Source: Candidatus Saccharimonadales bacterium (lineage in GTDB: Bacteria > Patescibacteriota > Saccharimonadia > Saccharimonadales > 2-12-FULL-41-12). From it: 64,000 nucleotides of DNA. The stretch covers positions 3,125-67,124 of the forward strand of contig DASUOG010000011.1 of assembly GCA_036276755.1 (NCBI GenBank). The letters are read 5' to 3'. Shown piece by piece: positions 18,607-30,681 of this stretch. A program made the position numbers and the translations under genes. The notes under the pieces were generated by a model that was not told the DNA's origin, made no database searches, and saw only the letters and a program-made list of their open reading frames with translations. Every line of letters begins with the position of its first letter. Within the stretch, counting starts at the first letter, position 1.

Positions 18607-19857
18607 TTAATTCCTGGATAATCTGATAGTCTTTGCGGTGTTTTCGATATTATCTTTGGTTTCTTTGCCCGACTCCAGATCCTTGAGAGTAAAGATACCC
18701 TGGCTTATCTCATCGGGACCGACGAACAAGGCAAAACGGATGTTGTTCTTTACGGCCGATTTTATTTTCTTATCTATCTTCCTGTCTTCGTAATCAATGG
18801 CTACGTTTATTCCGAGCCTGCGCAATTCGTCCGCAAAGGGCTGGGCTTTTTCATTCACCTCGCCGATAAGCAGCATTGCTACGTCAGTAGCCGGGCCGAG
18901 TTTTGGCACAAGATTATTCGAGTTCAAAAAATTTAGGAGCGTCACGTCGCCCATGCCGAACCCGACGGTCGGCACCGGCTCCACGCCAAAGTTACCGACC
19001 AGCCCGTCATAGCGTCCGCCGCCGAACAGACTGCGGTTGTTCTGTGGATTCTTATCAAACACTTCAAAAACGATATCGGTGTAGTAATCAAATCCTCTTG
19101 CCAGCGAATATTTTGATTTGACGGAAATTCCTGATTTTTCACATCTGTTTTTTATCTCTTTTATTTCTTCGGTGTCGCCATCATAAACCAGAAATTCATA
19201 TAAATCTTCCGGTCTTTCGACGGCGTCAGCCAGCTTATTTTTAAATTCAGCCTTGTCGATCTTTTCGAACCCGTCGATGAGTCTCATAACTTGTTTCAAC
19301 TGCATCTTGGGTCCGGACTCTTTGATTCTTTTATCCAGTAGTAGTTTGGAGTTGATTCTTATTTCATACATCTCGGGATTGGCGTCCAATGCCTTCATGA
19401 TTGAATCGGCCAGTTTGATTATCTCAACGTCCGCTTCAATGCCTCCCACGCCGAAAATATCGGCATTCAACTGCCAAAATTCACGCAAGCGGCCCTTCTG
19501 CGGCCGTTCATAGCGGAAAAAGTTAGCGATGTTATATAGCCGGAGCGGATAGCCTAGTTCCTGCCGCCGCGCCGCCACCATCCGGCTGACCGATGGCGTC
19601 ATCTCCGGCCGCATGATCACCTTTCTGTCGCCGCGGTCGGTGAAGCTGTATGACTGTTCGTTTACTATCTCCTCGCTGGTTTTGGACAAATAGAGGTCCA
19701 CCGGCTCTAAAACCGGAGCGTCGTATTCCTCATAGCCATAAGATTCACAGACCCGGCGGATCACCGCGAACATCCAGTTGCGCACGCGCATATCTTCCGG
19801 GTAAAAATCCCTGGTTCCCTTATACGGTTGTGTACTTAACTTCATATTTTCTTCCAT
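18607..19857 (-). CDS. hisS: histidine--tRNA ligase
   Basis: Class II core (KGTRDFYP, FRYERPQKGRLREF, GGGRYDGL) plus a C-terminal HGTP anticodon-binding domain, so this is HisRS rather than HisZ. There is a 1-nt gap to hisD. Confidence 0.93.
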   Translation of the reverse strand: MEENMKLSTQPYKGTRDFYPEDMRVRNWMFAVIRRVCESYGYEEYDAPVLEPVDLYLSKTSEEIVNEQSYSFTDRGDRKVIMRPEMTPSVSRMVAARRQELGYPLRLYNIANFFRYERPQKGRLREFWQLNADIFGVGGIEADVEIIKLADSIMKALDANPEMYEIRINSKLLLDKRIKESGPKMQLKQVMRLIDGFEKIDKAEFKNKLADAVERPEDLYEFLVYDGDTEEIKEIKNRCEKSGISVKSKYSLARGFDYYTDIVFEVFDKNPQNNRSLFGGGRYDGLVGNFGVEPVPTVGFGMGDVTLLNFLNSNNLVPKLGPATDVAMLLIGEVNEKAQPFADELRRLGINVAIDYEDRKIDKKIKSAVKNNIRFALFVGPDEISQGIFTLKDLESGKETKDNIENTAKTIRLSRN

Positions 19858-19876: not shown

Positions 19877-20110
19877 TTACTCTTCAGCGACGACCAATTT
19901 TACCCCCAAATCTTCCAAAAGAGGGTCAATCCAAGATAAGGTTTCGGGAGCTATCGTTAAGATGACCTCTAAATCGTCAGCTTCTCCGCTATTACCGTTC
20001 ATAGCTTGATCTTCCGGCTGTCTTATGTCTGTTACCGGCAGATAGGTGTAGGAAGGCTTTTGCCCTCTTTCAAACCCTGTGGCGCCGTTTATTCTAATGA
20101 CTTTTCTCAT
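19877..20110 (-). CDS. hypothetical 77-aa acidic protein, first ORF of the hisS operon
   Basis: GAAGGA lies 8 nt upstream of the ATG, and the ORF stops 19 nt before hisS. No recognisable domain. Confidence 0.5.
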   Translation of the reverse strand: MRKVIRINGATGFERGQKPSYTYLPVTDIRQPEDQAMNGNSGEADDLEVILTIAPETLSWIDPLLEDLGVKLVVAEE

Positions 20111-20145
20111 AATTTATCCTTCAACTTAAACTTAATAAAATCAAA

Positions 20146-20168
20146 AACGCCGGAGCGAGTCCGGCGTT
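20146..20168 (-). terminator. intrinsic terminator/attenuator hairpin in the hisS-operon leader
   Basis: The minus strand reads AACGCCGGA-CUCGC-UCCGGCGUU followed by UUUGAUUUUAUU. It lies 35 nt upstream of the orf77 ATG. The plus strand also shows a T-run after the stem. Confidence 0.65.
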
Positions 20169-20192
20169 AGAATTTTTTGAGACAATAGTTAA

Positions 20193-20252
20193 CTAACCGA
20201 CACGCTCCGGCAATATATGCAGATGATGCTGGTTAGTCATTTGTCTTAACAT
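20193..20252 (-). CDS. candidate leader peptide MLRQMTNQHHLHILPERVG (19 codons)
   Basis: ATG TTA AGA CAA ATG ACT AAC CAG CAT CAT CTG CAT ATA TTG CCG GAG CGT GTC GGT TAG. Three His codons fall within four positions. The 3' part overlaps the antiterminator segment. The ATG lies 7 nt after a TATAGT box. Confidence 0.45.
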   Translation of the reverse strand: MLRQMTNQHHLHILPERVG

Positions 20253-20259
20253 GCGGAAT

Positions 20260-20288
20260 ACTATAATACTTATTATGCTCAAAGTCAA
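20260..20288 (-). promoter_or_regulatory. candidate sigma-70 promoter TTGACT-N17-TATAGT for the his leader
   Basis: Read on the minus strand: TTGACT at 20288..20283 and TATAGT at 20265..20260. Confidence 0.5.
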
Positions 20289-20344
20289 TTATAGTTCTAT
20301 AAAATATAATGTACTTTTGCGTAAATTTATTATATATTATAAAA

Positions 20345-21037
20345 ATGTCTCAGGTATCTAAAGCAGAGTTGTATACAGCTTCGTTTGAAATAACCGCAAA
20401 ACATGAAGAACACGGCTTTGACCGGCGCCCGGAAGAAGCATTTGACCTGGATAGGGAGCCAGTTATGATTACCGGAGTTTATATGACCGGCGATGCCGAA
20501 GACCCGCCCTTAAACCAAGTCGGGCTGCTGCGCGAAGACTTGGCAAGACCGGGCATACAATCAGCTCTTTTCGTTCATGCAGCTAGCGAACTAGCTCTTA
20601 AGAATCTACCTTTTATTCCTGATCAAGAGATGAAAGGGATATGCAAACAAATAGCAGAAGCCGTAGATGAAATGGAAGAGCCTTCCGAAGGCGGAGGTTT
20701 CGCGATAATAGCTTTATATGCTATCTACAACGTACACAATCATCCAATACCACACACTTTTGTCTCTAGAAAATTCGTAGATGTGTTAAGTAAGAAGACA
20801 GAGTTGCCTACACCTACCGAGGATGAAATGAGGCGACTTTATTCAATCCAAGCCGAGCATAATTCCGATATAGAACCGTTTGAGGAATATGTTGCGGCAA
20901 TAGAAGAAGTGCTCGCCCAAGCCGGTTCTGACGAACAGGCAAACAGGGTCCTTGCTGAGAATTACTTGAATTTCCTTGTGGTGCCGAGAACCGACATGCA
21001 TCCCGTAATAGCCTCTGCACTTTTTAGCGAGAGATAG
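20345..21037 (+). CDS. hypothetical 230-aa acidic protein (orphan plus-strand gene)
   Basis: I placed the start at MSQVSK (ATG 20345) after a very AT-rich upstream region. The track start at 20309 lies inside that AT-rich region. No recognisable domain. Confidence 0.7.
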   Translation: MSQVSKAELYTASFEITAKHEEHGFDRRPEEAFDLDREPVMITGVYMTGDAEDPPLNQVGLLREDLARPGIQSALFVHAASELALKNLPFIPDQEMKGICKQIAEAVDEMEEPSEGGGFAIIALYAIYNVHNHPIPHTFVSRKFVDVLSKKTELPTPTEDEMRRLYSIQAEHNSDIEPFEEYVAAIEEVLAQAGSDEQANRVLAENYLNFLVVPRTDMHPVIASALFSER

Positions 21038-21172: not shown

Positions 21173-21257
21173 TGGTGGGCGAGAAAGGACTTGAACCTTC
21201 ACGCCTTGCGGCACTAGTTCCTAAGACTAGCGTGTCTACCAATTCCACCACTCGCCC
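21173..21257 (-). tRNA. tRNA-Leu, anticodon UAG, class II long variable arm, encoded CCA
   Basis: The reverse complement reads GGGCGAG-TG-GTGGAATTGGTAGACAC-G-CTAGT-CTTAGGA-ACTAG-TGCCGCAAGGCGT-GAAGGTTCAAGTCCTTC-T-CTCGCCC-A-CCA. It has a 7-bp acceptor stem, the GTTCAAGTC T-loop, and the anticodon loop CT-TAG-GA. Confidence 0.93.
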
Positions 21258-26320: not shown

Positions 26321-27574
26321 TCAGCCAAGTTCGATTATGGCGTATTTGTTCTTGCCTCTTTTGATAATCGCATGGCCGGCGGCGACTTCATCGGTCTTTT
26401 TAAGAGAGTAGTTTTCATCTATTGTTTTGCCATTGAGTGAAATGGCGCCTTGAGCGAACATCCGTCGGGCCTCGCTATTGGAGGTCACCAAACCCGTGGC
26501 AACCAGAACGGAGATCAAGTTCTCCCCTGTTTTAGTGTTGTATACAGGCAGAAAACCTTTCATGGTTGAGATGTCTTTGGCAGTCAGTCCGCCGTAATCG
26601 GCCGAACCGAACAGGCAAGCGTTAATACGCTCAATGGATTCGGTCTCTTCCTGACCGTGCACAAGCTTAGTAACTTCATGGGCAAGTACCTTTTGGGCTT
26701 GACGGCGGCTTGGATCTTTCTTGAATTCAGTAATTATACTTTCTACTTCATTTCTTGGCAGCAATGTATAAATTTTCAGGTAATCCGCAGCGCTGTCATC
26801 GTCAAGGTTCAGCCAGAACTGATAAAAGTCAAACGGGCCGGTCTTGTTAGCATCGAGCCAGACAGCACCTTCTTCGGTTTTGCCGAATTTTTCGCCGGTC
26901 GATTTGTTGATTACCAGCGGCGCTGACCAAATATGAGCCTCTTTGCCTTCAATACGCCGGATAAGTTCTACGCCGGCGATGCTGTTGCCCCACTGGTCGG
27001 AACCGCAGACCTGGAGCGTAACGCCCTTCTCTTTGAAAAGATGCAGGAAGTCATAGCCCTGGATAAGCGAATAACTGAATTCCGCGTAGCTGATGCCGCT
27101 GCCATCCTCGCCCAGCCGGGACTGTACGAATTCTCGTCCGAGCATCTGGCGCAACGGTACATGCTTGCCGACATCCCTTAGGAAATCTATGTATTTTATA
27201 TTCTTGAACCATTCCTGATTATCTACTATCTCGAACTTTTCGTGAGCAAAAATCGTCTTGTACTGTTTGATTATCGTTTCTTTGTTCTTCTCTATATCCT
27301 CCTTGCTTAGGAGCTGTCTTTCCTTGGTTTTGCCGTCAGGGTCACCTATCACCCCAGTGGCTCCGCCGACCAGCAATACCGCTCTGTGTCCGTGGTCGAT
27401 GAAATGTCGGACCATCATGGCGATAGCCAGATTACCTATGGTCATTGAGTCCGAGCTCGGGTCTACACCCCAGTAAAACGTGAATTTCTTTTTATCGAGT
27501 TCAGACGTGTCTCCAAGCGTAGTTTGGTGCGCAAAACCGCGCCAAATCAATTCTTCGGATAAAGCTGTAGCCAT
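26321..27574 (-). CDS. tyrS: tyrosine--tRNA ligase
   Basis: Class I TyrRS with the KMSKS-type KFGKT motif and a C-terminal S4 domain. I placed the start at MATALSEEL (ATG 27574), with TATACT 6 nt upstream. The track start at 27679 is rejected. Confidence 0.94.
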   Translation of the reverse strand: MATALSEELIWRGFAHQTTLGDTSELDKKKFTFYWGVDPSSDSMTIGNLAIAMMVRHFIDHGHRAVLLVGGATGVIGDPDGKTKERQLLSKEDIEKNKETIIKQYKTIFAHEKFEIVDNQEWFKNIKYIDFLRDVGKHVPLRQMLGREFVQSRLGEDGSGISYAEFSYSLIQGYDFLHLFKEKGVTLQVCGSDQWGNSIAGVELIRRIEGKEAHIWSAPLVINKSTGEKFGKTEEGAVWLDANKTGPFDFYQFWLNLDDDSAADYLKIYTLLPRNEVESIITEFKKDPSRRQAQKVLAHEVTKLVHGQEETESIERINACLFGSADYGGLTAKDISTMKGFLPVYNTKTGENLISVLVATGLVTSNSEARRMFAQGAISLNGKTIDENYSLKKTDEVAAGHAIIKRGKNKYAIIELG

Positions 27575-27681
27575 GACGCTAGTATAGCGAAAACTCATGT
27601 TGCGATGAACTAAAAATGCTATAATAAAGGTCTCAACTGATAATGAATTTACCGTTTTTAAGGAGTTAGTCGTAAACAAGC

Positions 27682-30681
27682 ATGGCAGATCCTAATAAGA
27701 AAATCCGCTTGAGGATAAAGAAACCTTCGGCCAAAACACGCAGTCATTACATCACAAAAAAAGGCAACAGAGTAAAACTCCACAGTAATTTCCAGAGTAG
27801 GTGGCAGGCTAAACGTGATGCCCGAGCCCGCAAACGGGCGGCGTATCTGGCTACCCTACCGAAAAACCGTTTCAAGCGTATCTTATACAGGATGCATCCT
27901 AAGCGGGCGGCTCAGTACTGGTTCAGTCGCGAAGGCGGCATCATGGCCCTTAAGCTGACCGGTGTCGGTATTCTGGCAGTATTTTTGCTTTTGGTCGGCG
28001 TATTCGCTTATTTCAGGAAGGACTTGCCGAATCTGCGTGATATATCCGGTAATAACATTGGCGGATCTATCAGGTATTACGACCGGACCGGCAAAGTCCT
28101 GCTCTGGGAAGATTATGATGCAGTAAAACGCAACCCGGTCCAAGATGACGACATATCGCAAAAGATAAAAGATGCCACTGTAGCCATAGAAGACAAGGAT
28201 TTCTTCAACCATAGCGGTTTTGATGTCAAAGGTATTGTAAGAGCCGGTGTCAACAATTATCTCGGAGACGGCGGCCAGCAAGGTGGTTCCACCATCACCC
28301 AGCAGTTGGTAAAGCTAACACAGAACTGGACCAAGGACCGCACCTACGCCCGGAAGATAAAAGAGTTGATACTGTCCGTCGAGCTGGAGCGTACTTATAG
28401 CAAGCAGGAAATCCTGACGGGTTATCTCAACACCGCTCCATACGGAGATATCCAGTATGGGGTGGAGGCGGCGATGCGCGACTATTTCCAGAAGAATGCC
28501 AAAGACATGACACTGGACGAGGCCGCGTTTTTGGCGGCTATCCCTAAGTCGCCATCCGTATATTCACCCTACGGAGCCAGATTCAATCGTCAGGAGCTGA
28601 TTGGCAGGCAGCATTACATTTTAGATCTGATGCAACAACAAGGCTATATTACGGCGAAGGAGCGCGACAAGTCTAAAAAAGTTAATACCCTGAAAAAAAT
28701 AAAGCCCCGGAAGCCCAAATATTCGAACATCAGAGCGCCATGGTTTGTCCTGACTGCCAAAGAAAGGTTGATCGAGGAACGCGGCGCCGAAACGGTCAAG
28801 CTGGGTGGTTTGAAAGTAACTACCACGCTTGATCTGAACAAACAAAAGGTAGCAGAAAAGGCGATTGCCGACGGCATGTACCGGGTACGTGCCCAGGGCG
28901 GTGATACGGCCGCGTTGGTATCCGAAGACGTAAAAACCGGACAAGTGGTGGCCCTTGTCGGCGGTCCGGACTTTCAAGACCCTGTGTTCGGACAGAATAA
29001 TTACGCTCGCTTGAAACTGCCGCCCGGCTCCAGCTTTAAACCATATGACTATATTTCGCTGATAGAAAATACCGATCAGTTCGGTGCCGGTTCGGTATTA
29101 TATGATGAATACGATTCCCTGCCGGGCTATCCCTGTACGGATAGAAGCCGCGACGGCAACTGTCTGCATAATTATGACTTCCGTACGCCCGGACCGCTGA
29201 CTCTGCGCTATGCATTGGGCGGCTCCCGGAACATCCCGGCAGTAAAAGCTATGCTTATCGCCGGTGTCGATAAAACCATTAAAACGGCGGGCAAACTGGG
29301 GCTGGAAGACACCGGCAACGAAAATATCAAAGGCAGCGGCTACCACTGTTATAGCGACGAGAAACTGACCAAGGAATCCCAATGTTACGCCTCGTCAGCC
29401 ATCGGTGACGGTGCCTACCTGAAGCTTGATGAGCATGTCCATGCCTTTAGCACCATATCGCGAAACGGCCGGCTGATACCGCAGACATACATACTCAAAA
29501 TCGAAGACGCCAGAGGCAAGGTGATCGACGAATGGAAACCGTCGGAAGGCAAACAAGCGGTACGACCGCAATCGGCATACATAGTAGCCGATATCTTAAG
29601 CGATCCCCGGGCAAGTTATATGGCTCGAAAAAGCCATGAATTCAACGGCTGGAAGTTTTCGATGAAGACCGGTACGACGAACGACTCCAAGGACGGCTGG
29701 ATGATGGGATTTTCAACACGCTATTCTACGGGAATCTGGGTCGGTTACCACAACCGGACAGTAGAAATGAGCGGGTTCATGGAAAGCATGACTCAACCTA
29801 TCTGGGTAGATTATATGTACAAAGTCCATGAGAATTTGGAACCTGAAGAAAGAGAAAAGCCCAAAGGTATCCAGGAGCTGCCGGCTTATGTGGTACGTAG
29901 CCATGTAGGTGCCAGCTCGATCGAACCGGGACCGTCGACCGATCTGTTCCCTTCTTGGTATAAGAAAGGCACGCGCAATAAAAACGCCACCATAGACAAG
30001 GTCTCAAACAAATTAGCGACCGATTGTACCCCACCGCTAGCCAGAATTACCGGCTATAACGCACAAGCCAATGAGTTTTCCGGTGACAAATTCCACGGCG
30101 GCGGAGGTGGTTATAGTACCAGCACGAACGAAAAGGATGACATACATAATTGCGAGGATGCCAAACCGATAGTAACTCTAAGCGCCCCGGGCAGTTGTAC
30201 CGATTCTTGTATCTTTACGGCGACTGTCAGGCAAGGCACGCATCCGATATCCAGCGCCGAGTTCCCCGGCACACTGAATTTTTATGTAGATGGTAACCAG
30301 GTCGCTTCCCGCCACATAGGCGCCAGCCCGGATAAGGAATCCTATAAATACAAGGTTGCGGTTTCCGGTAAGAAAACCGTGCGGGCACAGATAATCGACA
30401 GCGTGTTATATGACTCCAGCGATAGCCGGTCCGTGTCCTTCAGCAGTAACAATGAATCCGAAGATTTTGAGATTACCGGAGCATCAGCTGGCGGGGGCGA
30501 TGTCACCGCATCCTGGGATGGTGGCAGCGGAACGGTCAAAGTTTACCGGGAAGACAACGACCACTTAATATGTCAAGCGTCGGCTTCGGCTGGCGTATGT
30601 TCCGGTTCGTGGGGTCCGGGCGGAGAACCGGACGGGATTTATGCCAGAAGTGGCAGCGAAGAAGATGAATATGATTTCTAA
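27682..30681 (+). CDS. class A penicillin-binding protein (transglycosylase/transpeptidase) with a long C-terminal extension
   Basis: N-terminal TM segment. GT51 motifs (EDKDFFNHSGFD, GGSTITQQL). Transpeptidase motifs SSFKP, SRN and KTGTT. An extra C-terminal region of about 250 aa. Confidence 0.93.
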   Translation: MADPNKKIRLRIKKPSAKTRSHYITKKGNRVKLHSNFQSRWQAKRDARARKRAAYLATLPKNRFKRILYRMHPKRAAQYWFSREGGIMALKLTGVGILAVFLLLVGVFAYFRKDLPNLRDISGNNIGGSIRYYDRTGKVLLWEDYDAVKRNPVQDDDISQKIKDATVAIEDKDFFNHSGFDVKGIVRAGVNNYLGDGGQQGGSTITQQLVKLTQNWTKDRTYARKIKELILSVELERTYSKQEILTGYLNTAPYGDIQYGVEAAMRDYFQKNAKDMTLDEAAFLAAIPKSPSVYSPYGARFNRQELIGRQHYILDLMQQQGYITAKERDKSKKVNTLKKIKPRKPKYSNIRAPWFVLTAKERLIEERGAETVKLGGLKVTTTLDLNKQKVAEKAIADGMYRVRAQGGDTAALVSEDVKTGQVVALVGGPDFQDPVFGQNNYARLKLPPGSSFKPYDYISLIENTDQFGAGSVLYDEYDSLPGYPCTDRSRDGNCLHNYDFRTPGPLTLRYALGGSRNIPAVKAMLIAGVDKTIKTAGKLGLEDTGNENIKGSGYHCYSDEKLTKESQCYASSAIGDGAYLKLDEHVHAFSTISRNGRLIPQTYILKIEDARGKVIDEWKPSEGKQAVRPQSAYIVADILSDPRASYMARKSHEFNGWKFSMKTGTTNDSKDGWMMGFSTRYSTGIWVGYHNRTVEMSGFMESMTQPIWVDYMYKVHENLEPEEREKPKGIQELPAYVVRSHVGASSIEPGPSTDLFPSWYKKGTRNKNATIDKVSNKLATDCTPPLARITGYNAQANEFSGDKFHGGGGGYSTSTNEKDDIHNCEDAKPIVTLSAPGSCTDSCIFTATVRQGTHPISSAEFPGTLNFYVDGNQVASRHIGASPDKESYKYKVAVSGKKTVRAQIIDSVLYDSSDSRSVSFSSNNESEDFEITGASAGGGDVTASWDGGSGTVKVYREDNDHLICQASASAGVCSGSWGPGGEPDGIYARSGSEEDEYDF

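Follow-up and report, generated by a model that had tools for sequence, protein, structure and literature searches.

The leader region upstream of hisS

We analyzed a 64,000-nucleotide (nt) stretch of DNA from Candidatus Saccharimonadales bacterium (contig DASUOG010000011.1, positions 3,125 to 67,124; hereafter the window). On its minus strand a leader with a promoter, a short open reading frame (ORF) rich in histidine codons and an intrinsic terminator precedes an operon comprising a small ORF, orf77, the histidyl-tRNA synthetase gene hisS and the genes hisD, hisC and hisN. An earlier note, made from the letters of this stretch, had proposed that the leader is a ribosome-mediated histidine attenuator, and here we examine that proposal by comparison with related genomes and metagenomes and by folding of the RNA. 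The features of the leader, in window coordinates, are as follows; P1 denotes a helix between ORF codons 5′ of the His codons and the region of the stop codon.

20283..20288, minus strand: −35 hexamer TTGACT (promoter scan and direct sequence reading)
20260..20265, minus strand: −10 hexamer TATAGT, 7 nt 5′ of the leader ATG
20193..20252, minus strand: leader ORF of 19 codons plus UAG, ATG at 20252, encoding MLRQMTNQHHLHILPERVG (sequence reading)
20231..20239, minus strand: region 1, the 5′ arm of P1, UGACUAACC, codons 5-8, adjoining the His codons on their 5′ side
20217..20228, minus strand: His codons CAU CAU CUG CAU (His9 20228-20226, His10 20225-20223, His12 20219-20217)
20190..20212, minus strand: region 2, UGCCGGAGCGUGUCGGUUAGUUA, whose 5′ part is the antiterminator strand
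20198-20190, minus strand: 3′ arm of P1, GGUUAGUUA, the 3′ part of region 2, which contains the UAG stop
20195-20193, minus strand: UAG stop of the leader ORF
20180..20185, minus strand: 3′ strand of an outer P1 extension, UUGUCU, pairing with AGACAA at 20246-20241
20146..20168, minus strand: terminator hairpin AACGCCGGA-CUCGC-UCCGGCGUU, 9 bp, GC-rich, −14.3 kcal/mol
20134..20145, minus strand: U-rich tract UUUGAUUUUAUU, 3′ of the terminator (sequence reading and terminator scan)

The promoter, TTGACT-N17-TATAGT, is of the sigma-70 type and with a score of 10/12 is the joint best promoter-like match in a 6-kb scan. The leader ORF has no Shine-Dalgarno sequence, the leader as a whole is ~110 nt long, and its fold has a z score of −4.6 relative to dinucleotide shuffles. 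Reading of the sequence bore out the layout given in the earlier note, that is, the promoter followed after 7 nt by the ATG at 20252, the 19-codon ORF with three His codons within four positions, and the hairpin with its U-rich tract 35 nt before the ATG of orf77 (at 20110). Under strict criteria (a perfect stem of at least 7 bp, at least 4 G/C, and at least 5 T within the next 8 nt) this hairpin is the sole intrinsic terminator across the window, and gene ends in this genome are evidently without canonical terminators. The hairpin, a palindrome, receives a terminator score on either strand. The leader sits in a divergent intergenic spacer; the hairpin is therefore not the terminator of an upstream gene.

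The leader is conserved in Saccharibacteria

The proteins closest to the HisS of the window are all from the ultrasmall Saccharibacteria (TM7, within the Patescibacteria or candidate phyla radiation, CPR) and are 46-64% identical to it. Relatives were taken from one-genome-per-species collections, giving 80 loci. A covariance model (CM) built from 14 instances of the leader found it upstream of hisS, on the hisS strand, in ~40 of these 80 Saccharibacteria species genomes and matched the window once only; at least 38 further instances were present on metagenome contigs. Representative leader peptides are given below, each with its locus designation.

L008: MNIFLTNQVHAHLLPERIG
L027: MFIVTNQHHQHILPERLG
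L060: MNYVSNHHAHLLPERVG
L047: MSYYKNHHHEHMLPRRVG
L005: MNIYCNNHQSHTSLEQAG
L066-L079 (Nanosynbacter group): MILPKFHHSHVLPR

Rfam contained no family that matched the leader, even at permissive thresholds (E ≤ 10 for the window leader and E ≤ 1 for nine divergent loci), and neither His_leader nor T-box was found in the window at the gathering score.

The distance from the −10 box to the start codon is 5-12 nt, mostly 6-9 nt, among 23 leader members, of which 18 have an extended −10 element (TGnTATAAT) and none has a Shine-Dalgarno sequence. This spacing predicts a 5′ untranslated region of ~0-3 nt, that is, a leaderless or nearly leaderless message, and we infer from it that transcription starts at or near the leader AUG. 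Two loci depart from the general pattern. The leader at L039:2861-2980 retains a single His codon and has a premature stop (peptide MTTTVSMFSHILPV), with the complementarity between region 2 and the terminator kept, and that at L076:392-505 has an early stop after two codons. These leaders are apparently degenerating copies, and by their sequences the lineages concerned may be losing the regulation.

The short ORF is constrained as His codons and as RNA

Every leader member has a homologous in-frame ORF, 14-21 codons in length. Stop codons interrupt one of the alternative frames in 23/23 members and the other in 18/23, and the 23 members together have 59 CAY triplets (CAU or CAC) in the frame of the ORF against 7 and 11 in the other frames. 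At the His positions CAU and CAC interchange, while the codon between them is free; this interchange within a fixed frame indicates that the His codons are conserved as codons. The pattern recurred among 33 distinct new metagenome sequences, where His is encoded at −16, −13, and −7 nt from region 2 in 27/33, 28/33, and 33/33 sequences, respectively, and the codon at −10 is His in none and takes 14 different identities. The earlier note had regarded the presence of only three His codons as the weak point of its proposal, an objection that loses its force, as two to four His codons in an H-H-x-H register are the norm for the family.

The metagenome sequences came from a scan with a pattern made up of region 2 and the terminator core only, with no His codon, start codon, or P1 arm specified. 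Matches with hisS downstream numbered 26, and every one (26/26) has at least two in-frame CAY triplets, against 2/48 of the matches with no hisS within at least 1.5 kb. The mean number of CAY triplets in the hisS group is 2.73 in the ORF frame versus 0.38 and 0.15 in the other frames; in the group without hisS it is 0.58 versus 0.19 and 0.83. Another 12 family members lie on contigs too short to include hisS, and those family members in which hisS was not detected are all on contigs that end within ~1.2 kb. Roughly two-thirds of the pattern matches are unrelated to the leader. Neither of the two matches that have at least two in-frame CAY triplets and no hisS proved to be a family member. A class of matches ending in …AFHMPI.PVPPPVG and a stop was likewise rejected, these matches being inside long ORFs of high-GC contigs and devoid of leader features. 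The class comprises loci L090, L101, L103, L106, L109, and L110 and ~22 others, and by eye it resembles the opposite strand of a conserved enzyme gene.

On the 3′ side of the His codons the constraint is of another kind. The bases GCCGGAG persist, and the encoded residue varies between Leu (UUG), Ser (UCG), and Gln (CAG); bases kept through changes of residue indicate that the 3′ half of the ORF is constrained as RNA. In distant members the tail of the peptide is unrecognizable and the pairings are retained.

We also considered whether the short ORF could encode a functional peptide, either an arrest peptide of the TnaC/SpeFL kind that senses free histidine or a small protein that acts in trans. 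In the main clade there is strong conservation of the C-terminal part, H-[IL]-L-P-E-R-x-G, with a Pro near the stop. Against this, the N-terminal half is variable, the residue before the Pro changes among L, S, and Q with its nucleotides kept, which places the constraint on the RNA, and the tails diverge (SLEQAG, LLRLIG, SPEVV, and LPR before the stop) while compensatory changes keep the RNA pairings. We judge a functional peptide to be highly improbable.

Three competing helices

A GC-rich hairpin followed by a U-tract is present in 26/26 leader sequences examined. In the terminator helix 86.5% of cells are paired and 6/8 pairs have changed on both sides, and terminator energies range from −12 to −18 kcal/mol across leaders, compared with −18 to −31 kcal/mol for the duplexes of region 2 with the terminator.

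In the window, the earlier note had pointed to the complementarity of UGCCGGAGCG (20212-20203) to CGCUCCGGCG (20157-20148). The complementarity stands, and its extent had been understated: region 2, UGCCGGAGCGUGUCGG… in the window, pairs with nearly the whole terminator hairpin, the 3′ arm included. The antiterminator formed by region 2 (20211-20190) has 16 pairs with the hairpin. Comparison of the energies of the alternative structures, one of the checks put forward with the original proposal, gives −27.8 kcal/mol for the antiterminator fold against −14.3 kcal/mol for the terminator. The duplex of region 2 with its cognate terminator has an energy of −29.3 kcal/mol in the window (z = −5.05 versus shuffles). 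Across leaders the cognate pairs average −24.8 kcal/mol and the non-cognate pairs −20.2 kcal/mol, and the cognate mean was attained in 0/20000 permutations; against shuffled region 2 the cognate duplex has a mean z of −3.8.

The antiterminator helix is 84.6% paired, against 34-51% for slid controls; 7/10 of its pairs have changed on both sides, and its covariation score was reached by 0/500 shuffles. These counts come from a gapless block alignment (A3) in which the register was fixed solely by a constant 7-nt spacing to the last His codon and by the terminator's own stem. Since the spacing between the 5′ arm of P1 and the His codons varies in codon number, a full-leader alignment made with MAFFT (A1) had set this arm wrongly in distant members and was replaced by A3 and by a CM-fitted alignment (A4). 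Locus L009 gives an example of parallel change: its terminator is GCUCCG/CGGAGC, and its region 2 has changed to GCUCCG…GAUCGG.

The proposal had described a switch of two helices. Its terminator and antiterminator logic was upheld, and a third helix, P1, had been overlooked. P1 (20239-20231 with 20198-20190) belongs to the minimum free energy (MFE) fold of the free window RNA, and its arms differ between loci.

Window: 5′ arm ACUAACC, 3′ arm GGUUAGU
L037: 5′ arm GUUACCC, 3′ arm GGGUAAC
L005: 5′ arm GAAUAUUUA, 3′ arm UAAAUAUUC

Cognate P1 arms pair at −10.05 kcal/mol versus −7.83 kcal/mol for non-cognate arms in the genome set (0/20000 permutations) and at −8.35 versus −6.87 kcal/mol in the metagenome replicate (2/20000). 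Over the 55 sequences of A4 the inner P1 is 79.6% paired, with 6/9 pairs changed on both sides. Terminator, antiterminator, and P1 are thus predicted to be mutually exclusive helices, all of them covarying, in which P1 has the part of an anti-antiterminator in the folding model. Alignment of the related hisS upstream regions, another check that had been put forward, found what the proposal called for, namely conserved His codons and compensatory changes in the competing helices.

Folding with the ribosome in place

We modeled the effect of a ribosome by masking all RNA up to its leading edge, placed 11 nt beyond the first base of the A site, in 24 genome leaders and 33 metagenome leaders. The numbers of leaders that fold into antiterminator/terminator are listed by ribosome position.

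Stalled at the His codon 13 nt before region 2: 22/2 (genome), 33/0 (metagenome)
Stalled at the last His codon: 2/21 (genome), 1/32 (metagenome)
At the stop codon: 0/24 (genome), 0/33 (metagenome)
No ribosome: 9/15 (genome), 18/15 (metagenome)

For the window, the outcomes with the ribosome at His9, at His10, and at the stop codon were unchanged for leading edges from +8 to +15. In the free fold, region 2 of the window pairs with region 1; masking of region 1 shifts the pairing of region 2 to the terminator region.

A probable histidine-responsive attenuator and its alternatives

We consider it likely that the element is a His-responsive, ribosome-mediated leader-peptide transcription attenuator of the hisS operon. 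The reading put forward in the earlier note is supported by the conservation of the leader, by the separate signatures of selection on codons and on RNA, by covariation, by the masked folds, and by the histidine genes found as cargo behind the leader (described below). The sequence comparisons indicate that the leader very probably senses how much charged tRNA-His is available and adjusts transcription of the hisS operon accordingly; translation of the leader ORF is likewise deduced from them, and the response of readthrough to His-tRNA charging is predicted by the folding model.

In the proposed mechanism, transcription would start at the AUG at 20252 or within ~1-3 nt of it, and a ribosome would load on the 5′ end of the leaderless message. 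With ample His-tRNA(His), the ribosome would reach the UAG (20195-20193) and cover region 2 (20212-20190); the terminator (20168-20146) would then fold, and RNA polymerase would stop in the U-tract (20145-20134), before orf77-hisS-hisD-hisC-hisN. When His-tRNA(His) is scarce, the ribosome would stall with His9 or His10 in the A site, covering region 1 (20239-20231) and so blocking P1, its leading edge ending just short of region 2. Region 2, left free, could pair with the emerging terminator, first with the end of its 5′ arm and its loop and next with its 3′ arm, and the antiterminator fold, more stable than the terminator by the modeled energies, would out-compete it and permit readthrough. 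Should the leader not be translated, P1 would hold the 3′ part of region 2 and the terminator would form.

Several observations weigh against this mechanism in its simple form. In 9/24 genome and 18/33 metagenome leaders the MFE structure of the free RNA is the antiterminator rather than P1 plus terminator, which indicates that P1 is weak in many lineages and that the default is not uniformly to terminate. The third His codon, which is invariant, lies only 7 nt before region 2, and a ribosome stalled there with its edge at +11 masks region 2. The predicted outcome is termination, so the simple model does not explain the invariance of this codon, a stall at which is, by the model, probably too near region 2 to favor readthrough. 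The outer P1 extension, part of the MFE structure of the window, is 48.6% paired over the 55 sequences and hence not conserved; it is probably specific to the sub-clade of the window, judging from the alignment. Two rows of A3 (L009 and L042) have terminator cores other than CGCC and were anchored by hand, and the covariation counts derive from related sequences, such that independent compensatory events are fewer than the cells counted. Finally, the mechanism takes transcription and translation to be coupled in Saccharibacteria, and this coupling is itself inferred.

The output stage of the element, antiterminator against terminator, is identical to that of a T-box, and one of the CAY triplets might act as the specifier of a ribosome-independent sensor in which uncharged tRNA-His stabilizes the antiterminator. 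Control of hisS by a T-box is found in many Firmicutes (PMC2965389), and a GUG anticodon would tolerate the interchange of CAU and CAC. However, no T-box match was obtained for the window at E ≤ 10 or for nine other loci at E ≤ 1, the ~110-nt leader lacks a Stem I platform, and no UGGN motif occurs in the internal loops of its antiterminator. The CAY triplets are spaced in threes, in frame with a start codon at the predicted transcription start and with a stop codon inside P1, with the other two frames closed, and the members retain two to four His codons although one would suffice for a specifier. We therefore regard a T-box-like sensor as very unlikely.

Translation of the leader could also act by another route, instead of or besides termination, through Rho-dependent polarity or through access of ribosomes to the downstream gene. 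The leaderless Cys attenuators of mycobacteria provide a precedent, as ribosomes stalled on them open a structure that hides a ribosome-binding site (RBS) (10.1101/834739), and the distance from the terminator to the next start codon is short in the window (35 nt) and at many loci. Yet every member has the GC-rich hairpin and U-tract, although the window has no other strict terminator; the competing helix is directed at the terminator itself and not at the downstream Shine-Dalgarno sequence, and the leader is constant while the cargo and the context of the downstream RBS vary between loci. The chance that such a route is the correct description appears very small to us.

That the hairpin is simply a constitutive terminator or insulator, for example against read-through from a tRNA-Leu gene (which is immediately upstream in several relatives and ~0.9 kb upstream in the window; the palindromic, bidirectionally scoring hairpin also speaks for this reading), with an incidental ORF and a separate promoter for hisS, is scarcely credible, given the consensus promoter between tRNA and ORF in all loci, the many loci with no upstream tRNA, the divergent orientation of the window neighbor on the tRNA side, and the in-frame His codons and covariation of region 2 and P1 with terminator and stop codon that it leaves unexplained.

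The attenuator thus remains our preferred explanation of the leader.

The downstream operon and its variable cargo

The operon downstream of the attenuator in the window is composed of the following genes.

19877..20110, minus strand: orf77, the first ORF after the attenuator, with a plausible Shine-Dalgarno sequence AAGGA
18607..19857, minus strand: hisS, histidyl-tRNA synthetase (TIGR00442 at 350.5 bits, cutoff 286.75; HGTP_anticodon domain)
18605-17322, minus strand: hisD (profile match)
17325-16264, minus strand: hisC (profile match)
16267-15800, minus strand: hisN, HAD-type histidinol-phosphatase (profile match)

The profile matches confirmed the order hisS, hisD, hisC, and phosphatase that had been read from the translations. 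Identification of the window hisS as hisZ was rejected on the basis of its TIGR00442 score above the cutoff and its anticodon-binding domain. The stop and start codons of hisS-hisD-hisC-hisN overlap, with the cargo translationally coupled to hisS. An exact-sequence lookup of the window HisD returned no record. We found no Pfam or NCBIfam family for orf77 and no tblastn match to it in the 80 related loci, even at E = 20, and a similarity comparison showed it to be unrelated to the HisG cargo of relatives; its only public match is an identical 1.8-kb contig (Logan SRR25158519). It is an orphan, and its status as a real gene is uncertain.

In relatives the conserved gene order is hisS with tig directly after it, which makes hisD-hisC-hisN of the window a lineage-specific insertion between hisS and tig. 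As hisS follows the leader wherever the sequence of the locus extends far enough, and variable genes are inserted between the leader and hisS or 3′ of hisS, comparison of the loci identifies hisS as the conserved putative target of regulation and hisD-hisC-hisN as lineage-specific cargo. The cargo genes recognized are listed by locus.

L013:727-1695 and L036:2342-2977: HisG fused to PRA-PH (HisE)
L016:1572-2312, L040:1714-2151, and L060:2519-2974: HisG
L013, L142, and the window: hisD
The window: hisC and hisN
L018:1044-2988 and L027:1007-2931: M20 ArgE/DapE-type deacylase with an uncharacterized protein of 262-264 amino acids
L003:2276-3007, L005:1614-3007, and L007:1566-2998: uncharacterized protein of 221-238 amino acids (Cys-rich in L007) with an AstE/AspA-family deacylase

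Histidine genes have been captured repeatedly behind the leader, which is a separate line of evidence that it reports histidine status. Both two-gene deacylase modules are positioned between the leader and hisS; co-regulation of these modules with hisS, as predicted from their position, suggests a role for them in freeing histidine from acylated or peptide forms. Saccharibacteria are usually described as lacking amino-acid biosynthesis; the HisG-like genes, together with hisD-hisC-hisN of the window, indicate that parts of the histidine pathway occur among them.

In two species the HisG-like gene is seemingly split (L040:1563-2151 and L060:2389-2974). The two loci share an ORF of 37-38 codons (MKNIFISKGNK…RRLHRR…), which is followed in another frame by a HisG-domain ORF of 145-151 codons. 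The split may reflect a frameshift, loss of function as a pseudogene, or an incorrectly called start codon. On a Saccharimonadales contig, 3′ of hisS, a sub-threshold match to a type III hammerhead ribozyme was seen (L009:4759-4813, plus strand; 33.9 bits against a gathering score of 48.5, E = 0.0018).

On the other side of the leader, the window has a tRNA gene at 21176-21257 (minus strand), read as tRNA-Leu, and between it and the leader an ORF of 242 codons (20309-21037, plus strand) that has no Pfam or NCBIfam match and is possibly an insertion. At L006, L007, and L008 a tRNA gene is immediately upstream of the leader promoter. No further attenuator was found in the window by the strict terminator scan and a check of the region upstream of tyrS. 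The tyrS gene (26321-27679, minus strand) abuts a divergent penicillin-binding-protein gene (27682-30681, plus strand) with virtually zero intergenic space at the longest-ORF starts, and therefore has no leader of the hisS type.

Relation to known attenuators

The mechanism itself is not new; what we describe is a new sequence-defined family in Saccharibacteria. Of the features by which leader-peptide attenuators are recognized, the leader has an ORF with cognate codons, an intrinsic terminator, an antiterminator, and an anti-antiterminator (weak in some lineages), and, as in attenuators of the actinobacterial type, it is located before the cognate synthetase gene with a hairpin and U-stretch following the ORF.

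The enterobacterial hisL leader (Rfam RF00514), which reads the charging of His-tRNA through ribosome speed (mechanism summarized in PMC3896937), likewise has a short ORF with His codons, 1:2, 2:3, and 3:4 helices, and a terminator before the first structural gene. The Saccharibacteria leader, from another phylum, has neither sequence nor covariance-model similarity to it. It has two to four His codons in the H-H-x-H register where hisL has seven in a row, a predicted leaderless start where hisL is led by a Shine-Dalgarno sequence, hisS plus variable cargo in place of a full biosynthetic operon, and an antiterminator strand that engages nearly the whole terminator hairpin, its 3′ arm included. 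Membership of the Rfam His_leader family was rejected because RF00514 gave no match and the His codons are two to four and non-contiguous. Membership of the T-box family (RF00230) was rejected on the absence of an Rfam match, the length of ~110 nt, and the lack of a UGGN motif. The hisS T-boxes of Firmicutes share with the leader the hisS target, the tRNA-His charging signal, and the terminator/antiterminator output, but sense uncharged tRNA directly, with no need of translation, through features that are absent here.

The earlier note had called both a His leader on a synthetase gene and a leaderless leader peptide unusual; for each there is precedent. In bacilli, a His leader peptide has been predicted before a hisS paralog and hisZ (Naville & Gautheret 2010, PMC2965389). 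That system, compared here by its description, resembles ours in having a His-codon peptide and a premature terminator on a gene of the HisRS family, and differs in belonging to Firmicutes, in preceding the paralog and hisZ and not the housekeeping hisS, in having a stretch of His codons, and in not being reported as leaderless. In Streptomyces lividans, RNA-seq revealed leaderless leader peptides of 12-22 codons, 1-6 of them cognate, before leuS, trpS, alaS, and thrS (PMC8079986). These too are leaderless ORFs before the cognate synthetase gene, with a hairpin and U-stretch in the leuS case, but they are from another phylum and include no His or hisS case (PMC8079986); they were found by RNA-seq and inspection of one genome, whereas the Saccharibacteria family is defined by phylum-wide covariation. 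Leaderless polycysteine short ORFs in mycobacteria, which place several loci under one amino-acid signal, have been termed a "ribulon" (Canestrari et al., 10.1101/834739). They are alike in being leaderless sensory ORFs at which stalled ribosomes remodel the downstream RNA, and unlike in responding to Cys rather than His and in their translational output through unmasking of the RBS.

Histidine as a possible signal in host-dependent bacteria

Gene regulation in the Patescibacteria (CPR) is almost unexplored. A full-text literature search, of incomplete coverage, found no attenuators or natural riboswitches in Saccharibacteria or other Patescibacteria. The element described here would imply leaderless translation, transcription-translation coupling, and intrinsic termination in Saccharibacteria, would make histidine, or the charging of tRNA-His, a nutrient signal that these epibionts monitor, and flags the co-regulated uncharacterized genes as candidates for a role in histidine acquisition. 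Some Saccharibacteria are cultivated on their hosts and genetically tractable (PMC10633639). Since the MILPKFHHSHVLPR variant occurs in the sampled species genomes of the Nanosynbacter group, the model can be tested if a cultivated strain carries the element, which could in addition be put to use as a native expression switch responsive to histidine, a type of tool that the field has described as lacking (PMC11665869).

We speculate, tentatively, that the leader defines a phylum-wide histidine ribulon, whose swappable cargo shows how host-dependent epibionts obtain histidine. If this possibility is correct, HisG-HisE, hisD, hisC, and hisN would finish or tap intermediates derived from the host, such as histidinol phosphate, the M20 and AstE/AspA modules would free histidine from host-derived acyl-histidine or peptides, and one signal read by the ribosome would switch on all of this cargo. 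In that case the CPR would also yield its first evidence of metabolite sensing that relies on intrinsic termination and transcription-translation coupling.

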